Source: Escherichia coli (GTDB lineage: Bacteria > Pseudomonadota > Gammaproteobacteria > Enterobacterales > Enterobacteriaceae). From it: DNA of 64,000 nt. This document shows positions 25,003 to 56,962 of the stretch, piece after piece. The notes below the pieces were generated by a model. That model saw only the letters and a program-made list of their open reading frames with translations. It was not told the origin of the DNA and searched no databases. The position numbers and the translations under genes are program-made. Location: NCBI RefSeq assembly GCF_050920415.1, contig NZ_CP169309.1; one strand, written 5' to 3'. The stretch's first letter is position 1. The number at the start of each line of letters is the position of its first letter.

Positions 25003-25310
25003 AAGCTGCTCCCGGGCTTGCAAAAGCCCATGTCCATATTTTTGATGGAGGAAACAATAGGCAATCGCAGGCGGAGCAAACAGTGGATAAAAAGGCCATT
25101 TACTGGACTTTTGTAATATCAGTACAAAAATGCGATCCGCCTCATAACTTGCGATAATCCGGAAGCCTGCCGCAAAACGGCATCTTGTGAGACGCGTCGC
25201 AAATTGACGGTTACATTACATTTGTCCAGCTTTTGGCAGATTTGTCACATGGCAGGCCGTTGCCGTGCGCTCTTATCCTGTAAACAGAGAACCGTACCGG
25301 GAGAAAGGCA

Positions 25311-27812
25311 ATGGCCCTGATTGTGGAATTTATTTGTGAGCTACCTAACGGCGTACATGCCCGTCCGGCAAGCCACGTTGAAACGCTGTGTAATACTTTT
25401 TCATCACAAATTGAGTGGCATAACCTGCGCACTGACCGCAAGGGCAACGCCAAAAGCGCCCTTGCGCTGATTGGCACCGATACGCTGGTGGGCGATAGCT
25501 GCCAGTTACTGATTTCCGGGGCCGATGAACAGGAAGCGCATCAGCGTTTAAGCCAATGGCTGCGCGATGAATTTCCCCACTGCGACGCGCCGCTGGCGGA
25601 AATAAAATCTGACGAACTGGAGCCGCTGCCGGTATCATTAACCAACCTGAATCCGCGTATTATCCGCGCCCGCACCGTATGCAGTGGTAGCGCAGGCGGC
25701 ATTCTGACGCCAATCTCTTCTTTAGATCTCAACGCGCTGGGTAACCTCCCCGCAACCAACGGCGTTGACGCCGAGCAATCCGCGCTGGAAAACGGCCTGA
25801 CACTGGTACTGAAAAATATTGAGTTTCGTCTGCTGGATAGCGACGGTGCTACCAGCGCGATTCTGGAAGCGCACCGCTCCCTGGCTGGCGATACTTCCCT
25901 GCGCGAACATTTACTGGCAGGCGTCAGCGCTGGATTAAGCTGCGCCGAAGCGATTGTCGCCAGTGCGAATCACTTTTGCGAAGAGTTTTCCCGTTCCAGC
26001 AGCAGCTACCAGCAAGAACGCGCGCTGGATGTGCGCGATGTCTGCTTCCAGTTACTCCAGCAAATCTACGGCGAGAAACGCTTTCCGGCACCGGGCAAGC
26101 TAACGCAGCCCGCCATTTGTATGGCGGATGAACTGACCCCTAGCCAGTTCCTCGAACTGGATAAAAATCACCTCAAAGGATTGTTGCTCAAAAGCGGCGG
26201 CACCACCTCACACACGGTGATCCTTGCCCGTTCGTTCAACATTCCGACGCTGGTTGGTGTGGATATTGATGCCCTTACTCCGTGGCAGCATCAAACGATT
26301 TATATCGACGGCAACGCTGGGGCGATTGTGGTTGAGCCTGGAGAAGCCGTAGCCCGTTATTATCAGCAAGAAGCCCGCGTACAGAACGCCCTTCGTGAGC
26401 AACAGCGTGTCTGGCTGACCCAACAAGCCCGTACCGCTGACGGTATCCGCATTGAAATTGCCGCTAACATCGCTCACTCCGTCGAAGCGCAGGCCGCATT
26501 CGGCAATGGTGCGGAAGGCGTTGGTTTGTTCCGCACTGAAATGCTCTATATGGATCGCACCAGTGCACCGGGCGAAAGCGAGCTGTACAACATTTTTTGT
26601 CAGGCGCTGGAGTCCGCCAACGGACGCAGCATTATTGTGCGCACTATGGATATTGGCGGTGACAAACCCGTTGATTATCTGAATATTCCCGCAGAGGCAA
26701 ACCCGTTCCTCGGTTATCGCGCCGTACGTATTTATGAAGAGTACGCCTCGTTGTTTACCACGCAGCTACGATCGATCCTGCGCGCCTCCGCTCATGGCAG
26801 CCTGAAAATCATGATCCCGATGATCTCTTCAATGGAAGAGATCTTATGGGTGAAAGAAAAACTGGCAGAAGCTAAACAGCAGCTGCGTAACGAACACATT
26901 CCGTTTGATGAGAAAATCCAGCTCGGTATCATGCTTGAAGTGCCGTCAGTAATGTTCATCATCGATCAATGCTGTGAAGAGATTGATTTCTTTAGTATTG
27001 GTAGTAATGACCTGACGCAATATCTGCTGGCAGTGGATCGCGATAACGCTAAGGTAACTCGTCACTACAACAGCCTGAATCCGGCATTCTTACGAGCGCT
27101 TGATTACGCCGTGCAGGCAGTGCATCGCCAGGGCAAATGGATTGGTCTGTGCGGTGAACTGGGGGCGAAAGGTTCCGTGCTGCCGTTGCTGGTCGGTTTA
27201 GGGCTGGATGAGTTGAGCATGAGTGCACCGTCAATTCCGGCGGCGAAAGCGCGGATGGCGCAACTTGATAGCCGCGAATGCCGCCAGTTACTCAACCAGG
27301 CAATGGCCTGCCGTACTTCGCTGGAAGTGGAACACCTGCTGGCACAATTCCGCATGACGCAACAGGACGCACCGTTGGTCACCGCCGAGTGCATCACGCT
27401 GGAAAGCGACTGGCGCAGCAAAGAAGAAGTGCTCAAAGGCATGACCGATAACCTGCTGCTGGCGGGCCGCTGCCGCTATCCGCGTAAACTGGAAGCCGAC
27501 TTGTGGGCGCGCGAGGCCGTTTTCTCTACCGGTCTGGGCTTTAGTTTTGCCATTCCACACAGCAAATCAGAACACATTGAGCAGTCCACCATCAGCGTGG
27601 CGCGTCTGCAAGCGCCAGTGCGCTGGGGCGATGATGAAGCACAATTCATCATTATGTTAACCCTTAACAAACACGCTGCCGGCGATCAGCATATGCGCAT
27701 TTTCTCGCGCCTCGCTCGCCGCATCATGCACGAAGAATTCCGTAACGCGCTGGTTAACGCCGCCTCTGCCGACGCTATCGCCAGCCTGCTGCAACATGAA
27801 CTGGAACTGTAA
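25311..27812 (+). CDS. ptsA: Multiphosphoryl transfer protein (HPr-like / Enzyme I-like / EIIA fusion)
   Basis: 833 aa; N-terminal HPr-like domain (..[11 protein letters not shown]..), central PEP-utilising enzyme domain, C-terminal EIIA (fructose type) domain. Confidence 0.9.
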
Positions 27813-34020: not shown

Positions 34021-34914
<894 letters not shown>

Positions 34915-34956
34915 TTACCTCATCAATCGCTTGTAGTTATATGTTGTGTTGTGCAC

Positions 34957-34988
34957 ATCTATCCGTTTAGACGTCCAGATGTAAAGAT
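34957..34988 (-). promoter_or_regulatory. MetJ operator (tandem met boxes) upstream of metF
   Basis: Minus-strand sequence ctttacatctggacgtctaaacggatagat contains tandem 8 bp repeats resembling the met-box consensus AGACGTCT. Confidence 0.75.
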
Positions 34989-35204
34989 GAAGGAAAAGCT
35001 GAAGGGCGTCAACCGAAAAATGACCAATGATGGTGAGGAAAAATCAGGGAAGATGAAAAAAATTCATCTTAATTAGAGGTAATAAATAGATTTCTTTATA
35101 GCGCAATCAACCTCACTCGTTTTGACTGATATACAGGCAACACAACGGCACCTGTTTCTCATTCGAAAAACAACGCCCTGCCACCAGATGGTGATGCTAA
35201 AGCA

Positions 35205-35245
35205 TCTGATTCGGCCTGCGCTCTCGTGTAGGCCGAATACAGAAT
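35205..35245. repeat. REP-like palindrome near the left edge of the metF-metL accessory segment
   Basis: Inverted repeat attcggcctgcgctctcgtgtaggccgaat. Confidence 0.4.
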
Positions 35246-35294
35246 CTGCGAAATCAACGGGTAACAAACAGCAGAGTCAACTCAGTGCGTACTT

Positions 35295-36850
35295 TTATTT
35301 AATATCTTTCACGCGCATACCGTTGATCTGTTCATCCGTGATGGTATTACCCGCTTTAAAGTAATCAACCACCGCGTGATAAACGTAATAACCGCCCGTC
35401 GTATTGCGCGCTTTACCCTCGGTAAACGCGGTAAAACCATCTCCACCATCAGCAAGGAAACTCTGAGTGGCAATGTGGTAAACCGTCGCATCTTCAATCG
35501 GTTTGCCATTCAAAGTCAGTGAGATAACCCGCTGACCAACCGGCTTGCTGCTGTCGTACTTCATTTCCAGGCCTTTCGATACCTGTAAAACGCCATTACT
35601 TAAACTTGCGCCGTGTTCCATCAAACTGCGTAATTGTTTACCCGTGAGATCCATCGTCACCAGTTCGTTGGGGAACGGGAAGGTACTGATGACGCCACCC
35701 ATCGTAATTGCACCCGCCGGGATCTCATTGCGAATCCCGCCAGAGTTGGTTAACGCCAACTGGGTATTTTTACCCGCCGCTGCCAGCAAAGCGTCCGCCG
35801 CCAGGTTCCCGAGGGAAGCCGATTCACCATAGGCACGTTTTAATTCAACCGGCGATTGCGCCACCGTTTGCTGACTTCATCCAGCTTTTTGTTCCAACTA
35901 TCAATCACCTGTTTCGTTTGCGGATCGGGCTTCCACTCATCGGCGTAAAGGGTTTTAAGCTCGAAGTTTTTCACCGTAAAAGTGTGCGGCTTCTCTTTGT
36001 AGTCGAGAACCAGTTTACCCACATCAATCCCGCCGCTGTCAGTGGAGAGGATTAACGTATTGCCGACTTTAATCGGTTCCGGCGTACCCACATGTGCATG
36101 CCCGGTGATCAAAATATCCAGCCCTTTCACCTGACTTGCCGTCTGAATATCTTTATCCAGCGCGCGACGCACATCTGTGCCTCCCATACTGGACTGGCGG
36201 GCCGGAACACCTTCGTGGATCAGGGCAACGGTCAAATCAACCTTGCCTTTGAGTTCATCGATATAACGTTGTAGCCATTTAATTTCATCACGCGCCTCAA
36301 TACCCACTCGCGTTGCCGCAGATACCGTATCATTAAAGGCAAATACACCGTGCAAACCAATCACGCCAATTTTCACGCCGTCTTTTTCAATGATGGTATA
36401 GGGCTTATCCCAGAATGATTTACTGCTGTTCTGATAAAAAACATTACCCTGCACAATCGGGAATTTTGCCTGACTCAGCTGTAATAACGTATTGTCCCAG
36501 CCGTGATCAAATTCATGATTACCTATAGTGACCGCATCGAACGGCATGGTATTCATAATATCGATAATCGCCTTGCCTTTAGTCAGGCTGCTGATATACG
36601 GCCCGGTAAAATAGTCACCCGCATCAAAAAACCAGGTCGCTTTGTTTTTAGCTTTTTCTTGTTTAACAAGCGTAGTGATATTTGCCCAGCCGCCAATATC
36701 TCGTTTACCGTCAGCAATCCACGGCACTTTATAAGGCTCTACATGTGCATGGAGGTCGTTGGTATAAATGATGGTGACATCTTTGGCGCAAGCCCAAAAC
36801 GGCAGTGTTAATGCGATACCCGCAGCAAGCATTTTAATTTTCATAAACAA
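35295..36850 (-). pseudogene. Frameshifted periplasmic 5'-nucleotidase/metallophosphatase paralog (UshA/CpdB-type two-domain enzyme)
   Basis: ORF 35840..36850 (336 aa, signal peptide MFMKIKMLAAGIALTLPFWA; metallophosphatase motifs NDLHAH, DAGDYF, GNHEFD, GHAH) is followed in another frame by ORF 35295..35864 (189 aa, nucleotidase C-terminal domain). The two parts align end-to-end with the intact downstream paralog, so a single frameshift near 35860-35875 splits one gene. Confidence 0.75.
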
Positions 36851-36903
36851 TCCCTTCCAGTGAGATAAAGGATTGCTACATTACGTTCTGAAAGGCTTTT
36901 TTA

Positions 36904-36919
36904 TGTGAGAATACTCACA
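36904..36919. promoter_or_regulatory. CRP-type palindrome (TGTGA-N6-TCACA) in the divergent promoter region
   Basis: tgtgagaatactcaca is a perfect match to both CRP half-sites with a 6 bp spacer, lying between the nucleotidase pseudogene start (36850) and the Cys-rich ORF start (36977). Confidence 0.55.
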
Positions 36920-36976
36920 TCCAGAGGCGATAACTGTAGGACAAAATCAACGACCTTATGAAATCGTTGGTGATAT

Positions 36977-38104
36977 ATGTCAAATCTGTTTGCGATTAAT
37001 GTCTGTAAAACGTTCGGTTGTCGAAATTTGGGATTGGCCTCATCGGAAGATTACAGTTGGCCAGACTATAAACTGGGTTTTCCGGCACTACACTGCCAGG
37101 CATGCGGAAGTTACCCCCCTTTGTTTGATGAACAACAATTTCGTGACTGGTTGTCAGTTCACATGACTACGTGTGCCATAGAAACAGGGCATTTTTGTCC
37201 ATCATGCTATTGTAAAGAAAAGATTTTTTATGGCCACAACCCGCAGGGAACACAACGCGTTCAATGCCGTTCATGCAAAAAAGTCTGGACTCCGAAACAG
37301 CAGCCAGCAAGAGAAATTACGTATCCCCAGTCCATTGAAACCGTTCAACTGTTCATGCCCTTTCAAGGAGCCAGCGCACTACAAAAGCTCTATGTTTTAG
37401 TCAGTCTTGACGCCACTCGTGGCAACATCCTTCATCTCTCCACGAATTATACGCAACATCAGACAGGAGACAGTCTGCGGTACAGTTACAGAGGCAATAC
37501 AGAACCAACTGAGCACCATAGCGATATTGTGCAGAGGGTAGATATGCGTGAAGCGCAATTCTTGCGCCGGAGCCAGTTCGATGAAATTCAGTATGGCAGT
37601 GCTGTGCTCAAGCGCAATGGCAAGGGAGCCATACTACGCCCGGTTATCACGGCACACGGGCATTTCAGAATACTGAAAATCCGCTTTCCACATGTCAAAA
37701 CGCATATCATTTCACACGAATGTTTTCTGAGAGGCGCAATTATTACAGCCTGGGCAGATCAGTTCCGCCAACAACAAGGCGAACTTTGGTTCGTAGAAGA
37801 AGAAATCAGCGACCGTAACGCTGATATTCCCTGGCATTTTCAGGGAACGACATACCATGGTTGGTGGCAAAATCAGTGGCAACGCTGGGGGCAGGGGAAT
37901 AACAGCAAGATGGTCTGCCTGCTCACAGGAGTCTCCTTAGAAAGGGGCGCAAATGTTTCTCTGGCAACCAGTCGTTGCTTTATCACATGGCTGACAGACC
38001 AACACGACTTTACCCAAAGCGCGTTATTATCCGCAGGTCGCGTAACGAAAATGCTGACCTCACTGGCGTTAAAATACAATGAATCGCTCAATCCATCTTG
38101 TTAG
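36977..38104 (+). CDS. Hypothetical cysteine-rich protein with an IS1 InsA-like N-terminal zinc ribbon
   Basis: 375 aa. N-terminal 100 aa carry CxxxxC, CxxC, CxxC and CxxC motifs (CKTFGC, CQAC, CPSC, CRSC); the stretch CPSC..RVQCRSCKKVW resembles the IS1 InsA zinc finger CPSC..RYLCSHCRKTW as I recall it. No recognisable DDE or HTH motif seen by eye in the remaining 270 aa. Flanked by AT-rich DNA. Confidence 0.6.
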   Translation: MSNLFAINVCKTFGCRNLGLASSEDYSWPDYKLGFPALHCQACGSYPPLFDEQQFRDWLSVHMTTCAIETGHFCPSCYCKEKIFYGHNPQGTQRVQCRSCKKVWTPKQQPAREITYPQSIETVQLFMPFQGASALQKLYVLVSLDATRGNILHLSTNYTQHQTGDSLRYSYRGNTEPTEHHSDIVQRVDMREAQFLRRSQFDEIQYGSAVLKRNGKGAILRPVITAHGHFRILKIRFPHVKTHIISHECFLRGAIITAWADQFRQQQGELWFVEEEISDRNADIPWHFQGTTYHGWWQNQWQRWGQGNNSKMVCLLTGVSLERGANVSLATSRCFITWLTDQHDFTQSALLSAGRVTKMLTSLALKYNESLNPSC

Positions 38105-38333
38105 TCAATACACTCGACAAACGACCATAAATTAATGGGATCACTATTTCTCATTTAATTAAATATATGAATGTATGACTGAAAAATATAATCACAGTCA
38201 ATGTTTAATTAATAACATTATTTGTTACTAAGATCACATAATACTTTCCTGACCTATGCTTACATAAAAATAAGACACGGAGTTCCTTTTATTTAAATAA
38301 TTCAACCAATGTAACAACCCCTATCAAGGAGGG

Positions 38334-39887
38334 ATGATGAGAACTGTATTTACGACTTTATCAGTCATATTCAGCGTGATGTTTTCTCACAGTATACTAG
38401 CTCAGGACGTTACTATTTATTATACGAATGATATTCACGCACATGTCAATCCGGCAAAAATTCCCGCTGTTGATAAGAACAGACTTGTAGGTGGTATGGC
38501 TAATATCGCAGGCATCGTTAATGAAGCGAAGAAAAAAAACAAAGATGTCTTTTTCTTTGATGCAGGCGACTATTTTACCGGTCCGTATATCAGTACCCTG
38601 ACCAAAGGTGAAGCTATTATTGATATCATGAACACCATGCCCTTTGATGCGGTGTCCGTTGGTAATCACGAGTTCGATCACGGCGTGCCCAATATGGTAT
38701 CTCAGTTATCAAAAGCAAAATTCCCCATTCTGCTGGGAAATATTTACTACACCGATACAAATAAACCAGTTTGGGATCATCCGTGGACCATTATCGAAAA
38801 AGATGGTTTAAAGATTGGTGTGATTGGATTGCATGGTGCATTCGCTTTCTATGATACAGTCGCGGCAAAAGCACGTGAAGGCGTAGAAGCCAGAGACGAA
38901 ATTAAATATTTAAATAAAGCACTTGCAGAATTAAAAGGTAAAGTCGACATTACCGTTTTGCTAATTCACGAAGGTGTTCCGGCGCGTCAATCAAGCTTTG
39001 GTAGTAAAGATGTGGAGCGGCTACTACAGGCAGATATTGAGACAGCTAAAAAAGTGAATGGTGTTGATGTCTTAATTACCGGTCACGCACATGTCGGAAC
39101 ACCGCAACCAATAAAAGTTAATAACACATTAATTGTATCTACCGATGCATACGGCACCGACATCGGAAAACTTGTGCTTGATTACAATCCGAAAACAAAG
39201 AAAATTGATAGTTATAATGGTGAGTTAATCACCATCTTTGCAGATCAATTTAAACCTGACACCATCGTTCAAAATACTATCGATAAATGGAGCGTAAAAC
39301 TTAACAAAATAACACAGGAAGTTGTCGGCCATTCTCCCGTAGTTTTAACACGTGAGTATGGCAGTTCTTCTTCTACCGGTAACCTTATTCTGGATGCAAT
39401 GATGGAAAAAACACCTGATGCCATTGCCGGATTTCAAAATAGCGGTGGGATGCGAGCTGATTTTCCTAAAGGTGATATCACACTGGGAGATGTTATTAGC
39501 ACATTCCCCTTTAATAATGACCTCATCGAGATGGATTTGACGGGCCGCGATCTCAAATCGTTGATGACGCATGCAACCAATCTAACTAACGGTGTGTTAC
39601 AGGTTTCAAAAAGCGTTGCGGTTGTCTATGACAGCAAAAAACCACTCAACCAACGGTTAATCTCTTTCACCATTAACGGCAAACCCGTGGAAGATAATCA
39701 AACATATCGTATTGCCACGCACTCCTTTTGTGCCAGTGGTGGTGACGGTTTTGAAGCATTTTTGAATGGAAAAAATGTGAAGACGATACCGGGAACAACC
39801 TCGGCGGAATCAATCATCGATTATTTCAAAAATCATAAACCTGTCACCCCAGACTTAACTAAACGAGTCATGGACGTCGCCAAATAA
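38334..39887 (+). CDS. Periplasmic 5'-nucleotidase/metallophosphatase (UshA/CpdB family), paralog B
   Basis: 517 aa; signal peptide MMRTVFTTLSVIFSVMFSHSILA; all metallophosphatase motifs present (NDIHAH, DAGDYF, GNHEFD, GHAH) plus a C-terminal nucleotidase domain. Strong RBS aggaggg; the start may be the second ATG at 38337. Confidence 0.8.
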   Translation: MMRTVFTTLSVIFSVMFSHSILAQDVTIYYTNDIHAHVNPAKIPAVDKNRLVGGMANIAGIVNEAKKKNKDVFFFDAGDYFTGPYISTLTKGEAIIDIMNTMPFDAVSVGNHEFDHGVPNMVSQLSKAKFPILLGNIYYTDTNKPVWDHPWTIIEKDGLKIGVIGLHGAFAFYDTVAAKAREGVEARDEIKYLNKALAELKGKVDITVLLIHEGVPARQSSFGSKDVERLLQADIETAKKVNGVDVLITGHAHVGTPQPIKVNNTLIVSTDAYGTDIGKLVLDYNPKTKKIDSYNGELITIFADQFKPDTIVQNTIDKWSVKLNKITQEVVGHSPVVLTREYGSSSSTGNLILDAMMEKTPDAIAGFQNSGGMRADFPKGDITLGDVISTFPFNNDLIEMDLTGRDLKSLMTHATNLTNGVLQVSKSVAVVYDSKKPLNQRLISFTINGKPVEDNQTYRIATHSFCASGGDGFEAFLNGKNVKTIPGTTSAESIIDYFKNHKPVTPDLTKRVMDVAK

Positions 39888-39921
39888 AATATCATTTATC
39901 AGTCTATATATTTAACAAGGA

Positions 39922-41547
39922 ATGCGAATGAAAACAGTGCAGCGTACTTTACTTGCCGCAACATTGCTGACTATTTTTTCGGTCTCAGTCATGGCGCAGG
40001 ATGGCACGATTATTTATACAAATGATCTTCACACTCATGTGGATTCTTATAAAGTGCCGTATATCGCAGACGGAAAACGCGACATTGGCGGCTTTGCCAA
40101 TATATCTACTTTAGTAAAACAAGAGAAAGCGAAAAATAAAGCCACCTTTTATTTTGATGCTGGAGACTATTTCACCGGCCCTTATATCAGCAGTCTGACA
40201 AAGGGCGAAGCAATAATTGACATTATGAATACCATGCCTTTTGACGCAGTATCAATCGGCAATCATGAGTTTGACCATGGCTGGGATAATGCCCTGCGAC
40301 AATTAAGCAAAGCGAATTTTCCTGTTTTATTGGGCAATGTTTATCATAAAGAGAGTGAGAAACCCTTCTGGAACAAGCCCTACACCATCCTGGAAAAAGA
40401 TGGCATCAAGATTGGTATTATTGGGCTACACGGCGTATTTGCATTTAATGATACGGTCTCGGAGCTCTCTCTCCAGGGACTCGATAATGACAATAATAAC
40501 CGCTTTGATAAATCTTCCGAGACCCTTAAGAATCAGGGGATTGAAGCACGTGATGAAGTGAAGTATTTGCAGCATTATATCGACGAGTTACGTGATAAGG
40601 TTGACCTCACTGTGGCGCTGGTTCATGAAGGCGTTCCGGCGCGTCAGTCCAGCATTGGCAATACAGATGTTAGACGCGCTCTTGATAAAGATATTCAAAC
40701 CGCTAGCAAGGTGAAAGGATTGGATATTCTGATTACCGGGCATGCCCACGTCGGAACGCCAGAACCAATCAAAGTCGGCAACACCTTAATCCTTTCGACT
40801 GATAGTGGCGGTATCGATATTGGTAAATTAGTCCTTGATGTCAACCCTACAGCTCGTACCCATAAAATGAAGAGCTTTGAGCTGAAAACAGTTTATGCCG
40901 ATGAATGGATACCCGATCCAACGACACAAAAAGTTATCAATGGCTGGAATAAAAAACTGGCGGATATTGTACGCCAACCAGTGGGTGAATCATCGATTGT
41001 ATTAACTCGCGCCTATGGTGAGTCATCGCAACTAGGCAACCTGTTTACCGATGCAATGCTTGTCGCTGCTCCGACTGCACAGATTGCATTGATAAACTCC
41101 GGCAGCTTACGTGCGGATATAAATGCAGGCACGATTACCTTTGGCGACATTACCAGTACATTCCCCTTCAAGAATGAACTTACTGAAATGGATCTCAGCG
41201 GTAAGGATCTGCGTAACCTACTGGAACACGGGGCATCGCTTACCAATGGCATCCTGCAAATGTCAAAAGGCGCAGAAATGCGCTATACCCCGCAGAAACC
41301 AGTAGGTCAGCGCATAGTATCTTTTAAAATTAATGGTGAAGAGATCGTTGATACGAATATTTACCATGTTGCAACAACGACTTTCCTTGCACTGGGGGGC
41401 GATGGTTTTCTGGCATTCAAAGAAGGGAAAAATGTTCAGGTCCGCGCCAGAAATAACATGTCCGATGTCGTGATCGATTATTTGAAGAAAGGCCACAAGA
41501 TTACGCCTGCACAGGTAAATGAAATGCGGGTGGACGTTAGCAAATAA
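39922..41547 (+). CDS. Periplasmic 5'-nucleotidase/metallophosphatase (UshA/CpdB family), paralog C
   Basis: 541 aa; signal peptide MRMKTVQRTLLAATLLTIFSVSVMA; metallophosphatase motifs intact. The N-terminal domain is about 80-85% identical to the frameshifted paralog and carries an extra N/D-rich segment of about 25 aa. Confidence 0.8.
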   Translation: MRMKTVQRTLLAATLLTIFSVSVMAQDGTIIYTNDLHTHVDSYKVPYIADGKRDIGGFANISTLVKQEKAKNKATFYFDAGDYFTGPYISSLTKGEAIIDIMNTMPFDAVSIGNHEFDHGWDNALRQLSKANFPVLLGNVYHKESEKPFWNKPYTILEKDGIKIGIIGLHGVFAFNDTVSELSLQGLDNDNNNRFDKSSETLKNQGIEARDEVKYLQHYIDELRDKVDLTVALVHEGVPARQSSIGNTDVRRALDKDIQTASKVKGLDILITGHAHVGTPEPIKVGNTLILSTDSGGIDIGKLVLDVNPTARTHKMKSFELKTVYADEWIPDPTTQKVINGWNKKLADIVRQPVGESSIVLTRAYGESSQLGNLFTDAMLVAAPTAQIALINSGSLRADINAGTITFGDITSTFPFKNELTEMDLSGKDLRNLLEHGASLTNGILQMSKGAEMRYTPQKPVGQRIVSFKINGEEIVDTNIYHVATTTFLALGGDGFLAFKEGKNVQVRARNNMSDVVIDYLKKGHKITPAQVNEMRVDVSK

Positions 41548-41558
41548 TAAAAAATTAT

Positions 41559-41594
41559 AATGCCATTCATTCACTGAATGGCATTATTTTTCTC
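41559..41594 (+). terminator. Intrinsic terminator after nucleotidase paralog C
   Basis: aatgccattca ttcac tgaatggcatt followed by a T-rich run. Confidence 0.6.
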
Positions 41595-41624
41595 TAAATC
41601 AACAATAAATAATGAGATATATTT

Positions 41625-42485
41625 ATGTGTATAAAAAAGCACGGGATAGCTTTATCGATTCTATTAATACCTTGCATTGGAAACGCTCAGGAAATTAAAA
41701 GTGAGGAAGGCTGGTTACATCAAAGCTTGAATGTCATTGGTCGCACAGACTCTCGCTTTGGCCCAAGGCTGACTAACGACCTCTACCCTGAATATACTGT
41801 AGCAGGAAGAAAAGACTGGTTTGATTTTTATGGTTATGTTGATCTACCAAAATTCTTTGGCGTCGGCAGTCACTATGATGTTGGGATCTGGGATGAGGGC
41901 TCACCACTATTTACGGAAATAGAACCTCGGTTTTCCATTGACAAATTGACCGGATTAAATCTTGCGTTCGGCCCTTTTAAAGAATGGTTCATTGCAAACA
42001 ACTATGTCTATGATATGGGTGACAACCAGTCATCCCGGCAAAGTACATGGTATATGGGGCTTGGTACAGATATCGACACGGGTCTACCAATTAAGCTTTC
42101 TGCCAATATATACACCAAGTATCAGTGGCAAAACTATGGTGCCGCTAATGAAAATGAATGGGACGGATATCGATTCAAAATAAAATATAGCATTCCTCTT
42201 ACCCATTTATTCGGAGGGCGATTGGTATACAATAGTTTTACTAACTTTGATTTTGGCTCCGATCTTGCGGACAAATCACACAATAATAAACGAACCAGTA
42301 ATGCTATTGCTTCAAGCCATATCCTTTCCCTGCTATATGAACACTGGAAATTTGCATTTACACTACGTTATTTTCACAACGGTGGACAATGGAATGCTGG
42401 GGAGAAAGTTAACTTCGGAGATGGTCCATTTGAATTAAAAAACACAGGATGGGGAACCTATACTACTATTGGTTATCAATTTTAA
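41625..42485 (+). CDS. Tsx-family nucleoside-specific outer membrane channel paralog
   Basis: 286 aa; aligns along its whole length with E. coli Tsx as I recall it (e.g. [63 protein letters not shown]). Signal peptide present. Confidence 0.8.
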
Positions 42486-42664
42486 ATCAGGTGATGTTTT
42501 AGATATTTTTACTTAATGCCATTTTGTAATTGTCATAAATAACTTCACCATTCACACTGTGAATTCATCGCTCAACACAAAAGCCCCTTATTACCGGGGC
42601 ACTGACCAAAGGCAAAATGACAATCAATCACCACCTCCGCAGGAGGTGGTTTAGAGGTGACAAC

Positions 42665-42690
42665 AAAAGCTGGCAACTGCCAGCTTTTGT
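42665..42690. terminator. Bidirectional intrinsic terminator downstream of metL
   Basis: aaaagctggcaactgccagctttt, a perfect hairpin flanked by an A-run and a T-run. Confidence 0.7.
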
Positions 42691-42700
42691 TCAATAATCA

Positions 42701-45133
42701 CTACAACAACTGCGCCAGACGGTTAATATCCGACTGAATCGCCCCGGCGGTGACGTCGCGCCCTGCACCTGGCCCGCGGATCACCAGCGGGTTGTCGCGA
42801 TACCAGCGGCTTTCGATGGCAAAGACGTTATCGCACGGTAGTAGTGATGCCAGCGGATGGTCTTCTCGCACCGCTTCCACGCCTACTCGCGCTTTGCCGT
42901 TGGCATCGAAACGCGCCACGTAGCGCAACACCAGCCCCATTTCACGGGCCGCTTCCAACCGTTGTACCATCTGCTCATTAAGTTCATCGCCATTTTCAAA
43001 GAAATGGTCGATGCTTCCACCTTCGCAATGGGTTGGCACCAGTGATTCAACACGCACCTGGTCCGGTTCAATGTTGTAACCCGCTTCACGCGCCAGAATC
43101 ACCAGCTTGCGCATCACGTCTTTGCCGGAGAGGTCATCACGCGGGTCAGGTTCAGTTAAGCCCTGCTGCCACGCCTGATCCACCAGCTCGGTAAACGGCA
43201 CGCTACCGTCGAATTGCAGGAACAGCCAGGAGAGTGTGCCGGAGAAGATCCCGCTGATCGACAAAATAGTGTCGCCGCTGTCGATCAGATCGCGCACGGT
43301 ATGGTTGATCGGCAAACCTGCGCCGACGGTGGCGTTGTATAGCCAGTGACGCCCGGTTTTTTCGAACGCGTCGTGGATCTGGCGATATTTATTGCTGTCG
43401 CTCGCTCCCGCCAGTTTGTTGGCACTGATGACGTGGAAACCGTGGCTGGCGAAATCGAGGTATTGATCGGCCAGTTGCTGACTGGCGGTAACGTCCAGCA
43501 CCACTAAATCATCATACGGATGGGCACGCATCCACAGGAACAGCGACTCTTCATCCTGTTCGACGGCTTCATCATTAAAGAAGGCTAGCGCACGGCTGGC
43601 GTCCAGCCCGTCATAGCTCAACAGGCTGCGACGGCTGTCCACCACGCCTGCCAGCACAAATTCAAAGCCGGTGCGCGCCGAGAGCGTGCTCTGCTCACGG
43701 GCGAACAGTTCCAGCCAGCGGGAACCGATATTGCCCTTACCGAACAATACCAGGCCGATGCGTTTTTCTGCGCGGAAGACGGACTGATGCAGCCCCTGAA
43801 TCAGGCTTTCGGTCGGCCCGGTGCGCAGTACTGCCACCAGGCTGATGCCGTCATCGGACTGCCAGGTAAACTCGACCGGCTGGCCTTTCAGTTGCTGCCA
43901 GAAGCGGTGGCAATGCAGCGGGTTACGGGTGACGCCCGCCCCAACCATCGCCACCAGCGCCAGCCCCTGACGCAGGCGCAGTTCGCCAGGTAATCCTGCT
44001 TCGTCGAGGATTTTCAGCGCACTGTCGGCCACTTCCGAGGTGTAGCAAAATTGCAGCAACTGGCGATCGTTATGCACGCCAACCGCCAGTGGGCGCACCT
44101 GAGCACGTTTCAGGATTTGGTCGATCTCTTTATGCGCCAGTTTGAAATCCTGACTGGCGGGCACCTGAAACTCAATCAAACAGACATCATCGTGGCTGGT
44201 GACAATACGCGCGCCCGTACCGGAAGCCAGCACGCGTTCAATGCGCGTGGAACCTTGATCCGGTGTATAGCTACAGCGCAGCTGCAGGTCGATTTCACTG
44301 CCAGAAACTGGCTGTAAAGTACGCGCGTGCAACACTGGCGCGGCAAGACGCGCCAGTTCGCTGGCTTCATCAAGACGCAGCAATGGCAGCAGACAGGCAT
44401 CTTTCACTTTACGCGGGTCGGCGCTATATACCCCGGCGACGTCACTCCAGATGGTTACGCGGGAAACTCCCGCCAGCGCACCGATTTGTGTCGCGGAATA
44501 GTCGGAACCGTTACGCCCCAGCAGCACCGTTTCACCGGCGTTGTTACGGCTGATAAACCCGGTCACCACCAGACGTTTGCCCGGATGTTGTACCAGTAGC
44601 TGTTGCAGCAACGGGTAAGAAAGCCCTTCATCAACCTGCGGCTGCGCGGCGCGTTCAGCGCGTAAAAACTCGCGGGCATCAAGCCAGGCCGCTGGCAATC
44701 CTTGTTGATTAAGTACCGCAGACATCAGGCGCGCCGACCACACTTCACCGTGGCCCACCACTTCCGCATACACCGCATCGTTAATACCGCTGTCGAGCAG
44801 CGCCGCCAGGCGTTCCAGATCGCTGACAAAAGCGCTAATGAGGCTATCGGCTTCTTCAGCGGGTAGCAGGCCGCTAATCAGATCGCACTGATAACGACGT
44901 AGCGTTTGTTGAACCTGATGCGCAGAGAGACGATCGGTCTGGCTTAGTTTCAACCAGTTAATCAACTGGTTAGTGGTGCTACCGGCGGCGGAAACCACCA
45001 TCATATCGTCAGGCTGAGAGTACTCCGCCATAATGCCCGCGACACGCAAATAACACTTCACATCAGCCAGACTACTGCCACCAAATTTATGCAGTTGACG
45101 ACCTTTCGCCCCTGCCTGCGCAATCACACTCAT
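42701..45133 (-). CDS. metL: Bifunctional aspartokinase II / homoserine dehydrogenase II
   Basis: 810 aa, MSVIAQAGAKGRQLHKFGGSSLADVKCYLRVAGIMAEY... Confidence 0.96.
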   Translation of the reverse strand: MSVIAQAGAKGRQLHKFGGSSLADVKCYLRVAGIMAEYSQPDDMMVVSAAGSTTNQLINWLKLSQTDRLSAHQVQQTLRRYQCDLISGLLPAEEADSLISAFVSDLERLAALLDSGINDAVYAEVVGHGEVWSARLMSAVLNQQGLPAAWLDAREFLRAERAAQPQVDEGLSYPLLQQLLVQHPGKRLVVTGFISRNNAGETVLLGRNGSDYSATQIGALAGVSRVTIWSDVAGVYSADPRKVKDACLLPLLRLDEASELARLAAPVLHARTLQPVSGSEIDLQLRCSYTPDQGSTRIERVLASGTGARIVTSHDDVCLIEFQVPASQDFKLAHKEIDQILKRAQVRPLAVGVHNDRQLLQFCYTSEVADSALKILDEAGLPGELRLRQGLALVAMVGAGVTRNPLHCHRFWQQLKGQPVEFTWQSDDGISLVAVLRTGPTESLIQGLHQSVFRAEKRIGLVLFGKGNIGSRWLELFAREQSTLSARTGFEFVLAGVVDSRRSLLSYDGLDASRALAFFNDEAVEQDEESLFLWMRAHPYDDLVVLDVTASQQLADQYLDFASHGFHVISANKLAGASDSNKYRQIHDAFEKTGRHWLYNATVGAGLPINHTVRDLIDSGDTILSISGIFSGTLSWLFLQFDGSVPFTELVDQAWQQGLTEPDPRDDLSGKDVMRKLVILAREAGYNIEPDQVRVESLVPTHCEGGSIDHFFENGDELNEQMVQRLEAAREMGLVLRYVARFDANGKARVGVEAVREDHPLASLLPCDNVFAIESRWYRDNPLVIRGPGAGRDVTAGAIQSDINRLAQLL

Positions 45134-50387: not shown

Positions 50388-51413
50388 GTGAAAGCGAAGA
50401 AGCAGGAAACTGCCGCGACCATGAAAGACGTTGCCCTGAAGGCAAAAGTCTCTACAGCGACCGTCTCCCGAGCATTAATGAATCCCGATAAAGTCTCCCA
50501 GGCCACCCGTAATCGGGTTGAAAAAGCGGCCCGGGAAGTAGGTTATTTGCCGCAGCCTATGGGGCGCAACGTCAAACGTAATGAATCCCGCACCATTCTG
50601 GTGATTGTCCCGGATATCTGCGATCCCTTCTTTAGCGAAATTATTCGCGGTATCGAAGTTACGGCGGCAAATCACGGATATCTGGTGCTGATTGGCGACT
50701 GTGCGCATCAAAATCAGCAGGAAAAAACCTTTATCGATTTGATTATCACCAAGCAAATTGATGGCATGTTGCTGCTGGGTTCAAGGCTGCCGTTTGATGC
50801 CAGCATTGAGGAACAGCGTAATCTGCCGCCGATGGTGATGGCGAACGAATTTGCGCCGGAACTGGAGCTGCCTACAGTTCATATCGACAATCTGACCGCG
50901 GCATTTGATGCAGTAAATTATTTATATGAGCAAGGTCATAAACGGATTGGCTGTATAGCCGGTCCCGAAGAGATGCCGCTGTGTCACTACCGCCTGCAAG
51001 GCTACGTTCAGGCGCTGCGTCGCTGCGGCATTATGGTTGATCCGCAATACATCGCCCGGGGCGACTTCTCCTTTGAAGCCGGAAGCAACGCGATGCAACA
51101 GCTGCTTGCTCTTCCGCAACCGCCTACTGCTGTCTTCTGCCATAGCGATGTAATGGCGCTCGGCGCACTTTCTCAGGCAAAACGCCAGGGGCTGAAAGTC
51201 CCGGATGATCTATCCATAATCGGTTTTGATAACATCGACCTGACGCAATTTTGTGATCCGCCGCTGACAACCATCGCGCAGCCGCGTTACGAAATCGGTC
51301 GGGAAGCTATGCTGTTATTGCTTGATCAAATGCAGGGGCAACACGTTGGCAGTGGCTCTCGTTTAATGGACTGCGAACTTATCATCCGGGGATCAACACG
51401 CGCGTTACCTTAA
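50388..51413 (+). CDS. cytR: LacI-family repressor CytR (nucleoside catabolism/transport regulon)
   Basis: MKAKKQETAATMKDVALKAKVSTATVSRALMNPDKVS...; GTG start inferred from the conserved N-terminus. Confidence 0.93.
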   Translation: MKAKKQETAATMKDVALKAKVSTATVSRALMNPDKVSQATRNRVEKAAREVGYLPQPMGRNVKRNESRTILVIVPDICDPFFSEIIRGIEVTAANHGYLVLIGDCAHQNQQEKTFIDLIITKQIDGMLLLGSRLPFDASIEEQRNLPPMVMANEFAPELELPTVHIDNLTAAFDAVNYLYEQGHKRIGCIAGPEEMPLCHYRLQGYVQALRRCGIMVDPQYIARGDFSFEAGSNAMQQLLALPQPPTAVFCHSDVMALGALSQAKRQGLKVPDDLSIIGFDNIDLTQFCDPPLTTIAQPRYEIGREAMLLLLDQMQGQHVGSGSRLMDCELIIRGSTRALP

Positions 51414-56245: not shown

Positions 56246-56524
56246 ATGAAATACGTTATCTTATTAATACTATGGATAATAACTACTTTTCTTAGTCATC
56301 TTCAGCACAGCAACCTACTGTCTGGAGATCCTGGCATGGTTGGCGAGTATATCGGTTCAGTATTTCTGGGGCCGTTGTTACTTCCCGTGCTTGTGTCAGG
56401 TATTCTGTGCGTATTTATTAAAAAAAAACGTAACTTCGCCAGTTTTACTCGCGGGTGCTGTTGGGTATTGGGAATCCTGCTTTTATCCAAAGTCGGCAAT
56501 ACGTTTCGTATGTTTACCCCGTGA
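56246..56524 (+). CDS. Hypothetical small membrane protein (92 aa, 2-3 predicted TM helices)
   Basis: ORF MKYVILLILWIITTFLSHL.. in a very AT-rich insertion between rraA and zapB. No homolog recognised, so the coding status is unverified. Confidence 0.45.
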   Translation: MKYVILLILWIITTFLSHLQHSNLLSGDPGMVGEYIGSVFLGPLLLPVLVSGILCVFIKKKRNFASFTRGCCWVLGILLLSKVGNTFRMFTP

Positions 56525-56554
56525 CAATATACCTTTGAGAATGCTGCGATAACC

Positions 56555-56962
56555 GTGACTATCCCGAACCGACACTGGAATACGGTTTCCATTAGTACTA
56601 ATAAAACCATTGATATAAGAAGTGAGGATAATAGCGTCTTCATTTCTGCTTTCCGCCTGCCCGCAGGACGTAGCGCCGATGACCCGCTGGAAGCGTTAAA
56701 GAAGAAGCAGCGAGACAATCTCAAGGATCAATACAATGAGGAAGCCTTCCAGTTTCATGATTGTAATGCCAAACATTTCACCTGTAAGTATCAGGATGTG
56801 TTGATAAATTTTGATGGTCAGCAGAAAAGAACCATCAGTGTTTATCTTGAAGACACCCCTAGGGCTGTGGGGATCATTGCATTAATGGCGCCAGATACGG
56901 CAGATAAATATCGCCAACAGGCGATGGAGATTATGCTTTCCGCTAAAAATGCAGTGAAGTAA
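56555..56962 (+). CDS. Hypothetical soluble protein (135 aa)
   Basis: ORF directly downstream of the 92 aa ORF with a probable GTG start. No family recognised by eye. Confidence 0.45.
   Translation: MTIPNRHWNTVSISTNKTIDIRSEDNSVFISAFRLPAGRSADDPLEALKKKQRDNLKDQYNEEAFQFHDCNAKHFTCKYQDVLINFDGQQKRTISVYLEDTPRAVGIIALMAPDTADKYRQQAMEIMLSAKNAVK

Follow-up and report, generated by a model that had tools for sequence, protein, structure and literature searches.

The 64-kb window of Escherichia coli DNA studied here, by which we mean the whole stretch that was analysed, contains a real and intact second gene of the Tsx family, which we call tsx2. The explanation that we favour, and regard as probable, is that tsx2 encodes a functional nucleoside channel and stands last in a nuc2-nuc3-tsx2 unit, within a cassette that would scavenge nucleotides and nucleosides. 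The features on which this account is built are collected in Table 1.

Table 1. Features of the tsx2 segment in the window, and the tsx2 copies flagged by PGAP
Feature	Position	Strand	Basis or remark
Low-GC segment absent from K-12	35067..42701	.	blastn against K-12 metL-metF region; GC profile
Nucleotidase-1, pseudogene in this strain	35295..36844	-	PGAP 'frameshifted'; alignment to SMS-3-5 gene
Perfect CRP-consensus half-sites TGTGAGAATACTCACA	36904..36919	.	pattern search; nucleotidase-1/375-aa divergent promoter region
375-aa cytoplasmic protein, several CxxC motifs, divergently transcribed	36977..38104	+	weak InsA zinc-ribbon matches
Palindrome AATGTTTAATTAATAACATT (20 bp)	38200-38219	.	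pattern search; upstream of nuc2-nuc3-tsx2
CRP-like site TGTTACTAAGATCACA, one mismatch	38223-38238	.	pattern search; 95 bp upstream of nucleotidase-2
Nucleotidase-2, UshA/5'-nucleotidase family, 517 aa, signal peptide	38334..39887	+	ORF; 637 bits to PDB 3IVD
Nucleotidase-3, UshA/5'-nucleotidase family, 541 aa, signal peptide	39922..41547	+	ORF; 757 bits to PDB 3IVD
Hairpin, 13-bp stem, T runs either side	41557..41587	+	terminator-like scan; within 77-bp nucleotidase-3/tsx2 gap
tsx2, accessory Tsx-family outer-membrane channel	41625..42485	+	ORF, 286 aa, 861 nt
PGAP-flagged tsx2 copies	L001 12126-12971; L003 9130-9975		'missing C-terminus'

A second, intact Tsx-family gene

In a profile search the tsx2 product matched the NCBIfam Tsx model NF011686 at 489.9 bits, against a cut-off of 311, with residues 2-286 of 286 aligned to profile positions 6-289 of 289; it also matched Pfam PF03502 (Channel_Tsx; E-value 1.3e-69), and a PDB search returned the Tsx structures 1TLW, 1TLY and 1TLZ (E 5e-114). 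Inspection of the translation points to a signal peptide comprising residues 1-21, with cleavage after GNA and a mature start at QE, and to a C-terminus (...TIGYQF) whose last residue is aromatic, as is that of Tsx (...GYNF). An AlphaFold (AF2) model built from 42 family members had a mean pLDDT of 86.9 and a pTM of 0.82, was of low certainty only in the signal peptide, and contained 12 strands as assigned by DSSP. The best PDB match of this model in Foldseek was 1TLW (TM 0.93, rmsd 1.8 Å), followed by NanC at TM 0.62. A first-pass annotation, made from the letters of the sequence and a list of open reading frames, had claimed an end-to-end match to Tsx, which the profile, Pfam and PDB searches bear out, and had offered to give the assignment up if no 12-strand barrel was predicted; the fold predicted is a 12-strand Tsx barrel.

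PGAP flags tsx2 as a pseudogene of 846 nt in MFDS1022581 and SMS-3-5. We dropped this label because the open reading frame is of full length, equal to that of the B2 allele that PGAP takes as intact, and because residues 195-286, the last 92 of the protein, are identical to those of that allele. For the same reasons the flag is treated here as what it probably is, an annotation artefact.

Paralogy and distribution

Using K-12 DNA as the query and a threshold of at least 95% identity, we found canonical tsx in 5424 of 5426 complete E. coli genomes. At least 95% identity to tsx2 was found in approximately 658-660 of the 5426 (12%), each with two Tsx-like places, and it follows that at least 656 genomes have both genes. 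Carriers include CFT073, 536, Nissle 1917, ATCC 25922 and SMS-3-5; over the island the window is 100% identical to MFDS1022581 and 99.3% identical to SMS-3-5.

The precursors of tsx2 and K-12 Tsx are 60.7% identical and the mature proteins 63.3%. In a neighbour-joining tree with bootstrap, tsx2 paired with its counterpart from Citrobacter enshiensis (100%), this pair joined a third type of paralog, P0004 (84%), and paralogs of 293 residues from E. hormaechei and C. freundii grouped with the tsx2 clade (76%), the accessory clade lying outside every canonical Enterobacterales Tsx. Judged by this position, tsx2 is an old paralog lineage rather than a recent duplication of tsx. Nor is it an orthologue of canonical tsx, the locus being nuc3-metL and not yajD-tsx-yajI and the clade not the canonical one. 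With a different locus, a different clade and canonical tsx separately present, tsx2 is a paralog, as the first-pass annotation had proposed when it described a clearly diverged accessory copy; the case that would have undone its proposal, that this gene is the organism's only Tsx orthologue, is excluded by the genomes that hold both.

Two further paralogs may be recorded here. P0004 (L007 10001-10849), the closest relative of the tsx2 clade, adjoins sprT and endA, the latter encoding periplasmic endonuclease I. The Salmonella enterica paralog P0110 (289 aa; L012/L013 7001-7870) lies between an AdoHcyase-like gene and a NupG-like symporter gene, with NUDIX and LacI-type genes in its surroundings, and so represents another specialised nucleoside locus with a Tsx paralog.

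The cassette around tsx2

The gene order is nucleotidase-1 (on the minus strand), a 375-aa CxxC-rich protein, nucleotidase-2, nucleotidase-3 and tsx2. All three nucleotidases match UshA-family NCBIfam models at 1e-35 to 1e-58, far under the equivalog cut-offs, and on that account we place them in a separate subfamily. Nucleotidase-1 of this strain has a frameshifting deletion of 4 bp near 35873 relative to the intact SMS-3-5 gene. The intact B2 nucleotidase-1 matches PDB 3IVD at 1124 bits, a near-identity, and by sequence it is the crystallised protein 3IVD/3IVE, deposited as 'Nucleotidase'; we take these two entries to be the uridine and cytidine complexes of CFT073 c4898.

The 375-aa protein had no PDB or PADLOC match; its Pfam matches were limited to the InsA zinc ribbon at E 0.009 and its NCBIfam matches to a sub-threshold IS1 hit, and an AF2 model was unusable (pLDDT 42.5). 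One possibility is a regulator that arose from a zinc ribbon of the IS1 type. Its gene is the constant divergent partner in the cassettes of six taxa, and it is kept in ST131, where nuc2, nuc3 and tsx2 are missing. We also considered a role of the cassette in defence against phages, and abandoned it because PADLOC gave no match and the enzymes carry signal peptides.

Five other taxa, namely E. hormaechei, C. freundii, E. albertii, Klebsiella sp. and C. enshiensis, have a cassette of the same kind, in which a divergently transcribed zinc-ribbon protein of 375-391 aa is combined with nucleotidases and a Tsx-like channel. The number of nucleotidases varies from two to four. In C. enshiensis the segment occupies the same chromosomal site as in E. 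coli, and across the other taxa the cassette is found at three or more further sites. The E. hormaechei cassette, at one such other locus, has protein identities of 67%, 59% and 53%, the counterpart of the 375-aa protein being 67% identical, and in C. freundii, E. albertii and Klebsiella sp. the Tsx gene is flanked by nucleotidase genes on the same strand. The first-pass annotation had remarked that tsx2 stands next to periplasmic nucleotidases. Two intact UshA-family genes with signal peptides do lie directly 5' of it, and the recurrence of the cassette in five other taxa makes the link firmer than could have been known from the window by itself.

Divergence of the barrel and the question of substrate

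Where does tsx2 depart from Tsx? Strand and loop borders were read off the AlphaFold model, and by these borders tsx2 and K-12 Tsx are 67.6% identical in the strands, 73% in the periplasmic turns and 58% in the extracellular loops. It had been suggested in the first-pass annotation that the divergence is greatest in the external loops. This stands only in part: both indels do fall within loops (one residue gained in L2, five lost in L5), but the difference between loops (58%) and strands plus turns (68%) gave p=0.12 in a Fisher test, and loop 4 is 100% identical. Moreover, the canonical orthologues of K-12 and Salmonella are 94% identical in their strands and 61.5% in their loops; since canonical Tsx proteins are already divergent in the loops, it is the barrel wall, not the loops, that distinguishes tsx2. 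Divergence is greatest in the N-terminal segment and in strands b1, b2, b11 and b12. Of the 122 columns with a conservation of 90% or more among other Tsx proteins, tsx2 retains 111; the 11 family-conserved positions that have changed (e.g., W31L, S40R and L55P) cluster in b1 and b2. The mature protein has a net charge of -6, compared with -12 for Tsx, and a pI of 5.6 compared with 4.9.

Residues required for transport tell a different part of the story. The mature-Tsx numbering used for our alignment is validated by its agreement with every published K-12 residue letter. According to published genetics, nucleoside transport by K-12 Tsx requires F27, G28, S217, G239 and G240 (PMC6499177; PMC8245764), and all five of these are identical in the tsx2 alignment.

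Could the specificity of Tsx2 nevertheless have shifted, so that it passes nucleotides, NAD-type dinucleotides or a modified nucleoside and the channel is the first step of a pathway? Several observations are in keeping with this. The Tsx gene is embedded among nucleotidase genes, as expected of a channel that lies upstream of periplasmic hydrolases; the mature protein is less acidic; the divergence is in the barrel strands and not in the loops alone; and other Tsx paralogs occupy differently specialised nucleoside loci, for example in Salmonella. Additionally, the clade-specific changes W31L, S40R, T43S and L55P lie beside loop 1 at family-conserved positions, and, going by strand alternation, S22R and H24D (in the numbering of mature K-12 Tsx) would point into the lumen. 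We nonetheless consider a shifted specificity unlikely: the five genetically defined transport residues are unchanged, and the predicted backbone superposes on Tsx at 1.8 Å. General porins, furthermore, already pass mononucleotides. A channel for nucleosides remains the reading that we prefer.

Regulation and expression

Within the 64-kb window TGTGA-N6-TCACA occurs without a mismatch only once, in the promoter region from which nucleotidase-1 and the 375-aa gene diverge. The half-sites are likewise perfect in B2, ST131 and C. enshiensis, where the spacer varies, and E. hormaechei deviates from them at a single position. Upstream of nucleotidase-2 the palindrome and the adjoining CRP-like site form a block (38200..38238) that both the B2 allele and C. 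enshiensis retain, with diverged sequence on either side. By count, the CRP-like sites of the window are not above chance (three found, 1.8 expected). In view of its conservation in B2 and C. enshiensis, the palindrome may be an operator for some regulator; by inspection it bears only a weak resemblance to the CytR octamer consensus.

Two other observations on the window belong here. A stretch of 220 bp at 25131-25350 contains four CRP-like matches with two mismatches or fewer (starts at 25131, 25186, 25234 and 25335). The gene for CytR, which represses canonical tsx and the regulon of nucleoside catabolism, is found at ~50388-51413 (+), ~8 kb from tsx2, but its position is core synteny common to K-12, and its closeness is therefore probably coincidental.

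C. enshiensis, too, has a hairpin in the gap before tsx2, though of different sequence, and by inspection of the pairing the one in the B2 allele is weaker. Such a hairpin may terminate transcription in part or stabilise the mRNA. With a terminator-like structure just 5' of tsx2, co-transcription of nuc3 and tsx2 is not certain. An Rfam search of 34500-43500 (E<=0.1) returned no match, and hence no riboswitch or known sRNA in that interval.

There is published evidence on expression. The CFT073 gene C_RS23130 (c4894; L019 12056-12916) is tsx2, and overproduction of TosR raises c4894 with a log2FC of 3.3 (FDR 8.1e-9), which places it among the top induced genes (PMC5956150). TosR is a PapB-type regulator thought to counter silencing of AT-rich DNA by H-NS/Lrp (PMC5956150). 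The induction by TosR implies that tsx2 is transcribable and is probably silenced in standard culture. As c4894 is listed plainly as 'tsx' in the CFT073 RNA-seq table (PMC5956150), expression data of the two genes are easily confused.

History of the segment

The low-GC segment covers 7.6 kb at 40-46% GC, takes the place of 194 bp of the K-12 metF-metL spacer, and runs from the metF promoter region to exactly the metL stop codon. We found no integrase, tRNA or IS within it. Synonymous divergence within E. coli is 0.07-0.24 for the segment genes and 0.15-0.19 for the flanking metL/metB; against Citrobacter enshiensis the values are ~1.0-1.6 and 0.8-1.0, respectively. The description 'island-encoded' in the first-pass annotation therefore calls for caution: with no integrase, tRNA or IS, the same site in C. 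enshiensis and a divergence that tracks metL/metB, the segment has the look of a long-standing resident in the course of loss rather than of a recent import. A separate patch of low GC (42.6% over 56-58 kb) includes a hypothetical gene at ~56336-56962, between rraA and zapB, with an internal stop in RefSeq.

That the cassette is decaying in E. coli is plain from the nuc1 frameshift in this strain, from ~1170 complete genomes, among them ST131 EC958, that retain just nucleotidase-1 and the 375-aa gene at the locus, and from other genomes in which fragments alone are left at the metF-metL locus. In EC958 (L008 8680-9810) the 3' end of the 375-aa gene now overlaps the end of metL.

Is tsx2, then, a redundant leftover heading for loss, with no role distinct from that of canonical Tsx? 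Its presence in just ~12% of complete genomes, the series of decay states at the locus, the frameshifted nuc1, the PGAP flag in this lineage and an apparent silence unless a nucleoid antagonist is overproduced are all what one would predict of such a gene. The selective record, however, is not. When the allele of the window, which is of phylogroup-F type, is compared with the B2 allele, tsx2 has a dN/dS of 0.148, with seven amino-acid changes of which none is in a loop (the loops are 100% identical), and against the C. enshiensis counterpart dN/dS is 0.05, so that tsx2 is, by these ratios (0.05-0.15), under purifying selection. If we add that the reading frame is of full length with the C-terminus of the intact allele, and that the cassette has been maintained in several genera, then a mere leftover seems to us improbable.

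A more ambitious reading is that the cassette is an unrecognised, self-contained nucleotide-acquisition system of the Enterobacteriaceae, with several paralogous nucleotidases in the periplasm, the 375-aa protein as its dedicated regulator and a Tsx-clade barrel re-tuned for a new substrate or for nucleoside release. In that event the substrates would be nucleotides, dinucleotides or a modified nucleoside or, alternatively, the barrel would release a product such as adenosine. We give either form of this reading only a slight chance.

The surface of Tsx2 and phage reception

T6-type phages, colicin K and the antibiotic albicidin are known to use Tsx as a receptor (PMC6499177, PMC8245764). The determinants for phage T6 in mature K-12 Tsx include N249, N254 and the segment 198-207, and substitution of N254 strongly impairs T6 reception (PMC6499177; PMC8245764). 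In our alignment with tsx2, N249 is kept, N254 is replaced by Pro, the segment 198-207 has a deletion of five residues together with substitutions, and R32 of K-12 Tsx corresponds to Thr. Taken with the transport residues, this pattern favours a working nucleoside channel whose phage-facing surface has been altered.

The first-pass annotation had speculated that the paralog could change susceptibility to phages or colicins. If tsx2 mattered mainly at the cell surface, it would be either an alternative receptor for Tsx-dependent phages, colicin K, CdiA or albicidin, such that loss of canonical tsx would not give resistance, or a new receptor for other phages. The known receptor roles of Tsx and the retention in tsx2 of N249 and most of loops 1, 3 and 4 lend themselves to this, but with the T6-critical N254, R32 and the 198-207 segment changed, loops that are undiversified between alleles and so give no hint of phage pressure, and an expression that seems low, such a main role is very unlikely.

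Proposed role and implications

We return to tsx2 as a nucleoside channel within a scavenging cassette. Tsx2 would be exported by Sec and inserted by BAM as a 12-strand channel through which nucleosides and deoxynucleosides could diffuse across the outer membrane. Nucleotides in the periplasm would be dephosphorylated by the cassette nucleotidases, and the products, pooled with the nucleosides that had entered via Tsx2, would then be imported across the inner membrane by the core transporters NupC and NupG. In laboratory culture tsx2 is probably expressed at a low level, its AT-rich DNA being likely subject to silencing, and cAMP-CRP probably turns expression on. Family membership, the predicted fold, the retained transport residues, purifying selection and the conservation of the neighbourhood and of the CRP-like sites are shown here, and transcription in CFT073 is on record elsewhere; the substrate, the co-transcription of nuc2-nuc3-tsx2, the dependence on CRP and the physiological role are inferred. 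Against the explanation stand the decay of the cassette, the hairpin before tsx2, the 11 changed family-conserved positions and a count of CRP-like sites that is no higher than chance. A pairing of pore and nucleotidase is also not obviously needed, because the nucleotidase products arise inside the outer membrane.

What would a second Tsx mean for its host? Resistance to T6-type phages, colicin K and albicidin usually amounts to loss of tsx, and about one in eight complete E. coli genomes, including those of the B2 strains CFT073, 536, Nissle 1917 and ATCC 25922, holds a second Tsx-type barrel. If tsx2 is expressed in the host, it could alter escape from Tsx-targeting phages or drugs, and it could add to the scavenging of nucleotides and nucleosides in nutrient-poor sites such as urine. 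It is chiefly for the targeting of ExPEC by phages or albicidin that tsx2 would matter, with in addition a small chance of a shifted substrate. The labels under which the gene currently travels, 'tsx' in RNA-seq tables and pseudogene in PGAP for one lineage, can both mislead.

Comparison with known systems

The locus has already been described as GR31 (metL..metF) of ExPEC/APEC (PMC12928451, 2026), which is the same locus and the same gene set as the tsx2 segment. In that account ORF 1_31, of 861 bp, is 67% identical to Salmonella Tsx and has three UshA-like ORFs alongside, and a coordinated system of nucleoside degradation and transport is proposed (PMC12928451). It is a comparative account, which leaves out the tsx paralogy, other genera, regulation, receptor residues and selection. 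Literature searches for a functional study of the tsx2 channel found none. With GR31 published and no such study found, tsx2 is an uncharacterised member of a well-known family that has been correctly recognised, and its nucleoside-scavenging reading is not new. To this the present work adds proof that tsx2 is a paralog and a figure for how common it is, the occurrence of the cassette in other genera, the conservation of the CRP-like sites, a divergence based in the strands rather than the loops, the state of the transport and receptor residues, and purifying selection beside a decaying locus.

With K-12 Tsx (b0411; 1TLY/1TLW/1TLZ) tsx2 shares its Pfam and NCBIfam family, length class, predicted 12-strand barrel, signal peptide and C-terminal Phe, as well as the transport residues. 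It differs in being less acidic, in its diverged strands b1, b2, b11 and b12, in a loop 5 shorter by five residues, and in the replacement of N254 by Pro and of R32 by Thr. The two genes also belong to different clades and lie at different places, tsx2 at metF-metL in an operon-like unit with nucleotidases whereas K-12 tsx, at yajD-yajI, is monocistronic.

Closer in architecture are the 293-aa Tsx paralogs (P0077, P0087 and relatives) of E. hormaechei, C. freundii, E. albertii and Klebsiella sp., which belong to the accessory clade and sit in cassettes like that of tsx2. They are ~58-60% identical to tsx2, with a longer L5 and an altered L6, and their chromosomal sites differ from that of tsx2, some having an extra nucleotidase and a downstream radical-SAM gene. 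Our literature searches on these paralogs found no characterisation.

Finally, in the UshA/CpdB routes of E. coli and Vibrio and the NadN route of Haemophilus, nucleotides or NAD in the periplasm are converted to nucleosides for uptake across the inner membrane, and the enzymes are, like those of the cassette, periplasmic members of the UshA family. To our knowledge, no known periplasmic route of nucleotide scavenging is encoded together with a dedicated Tsx-type outer-membrane channel.
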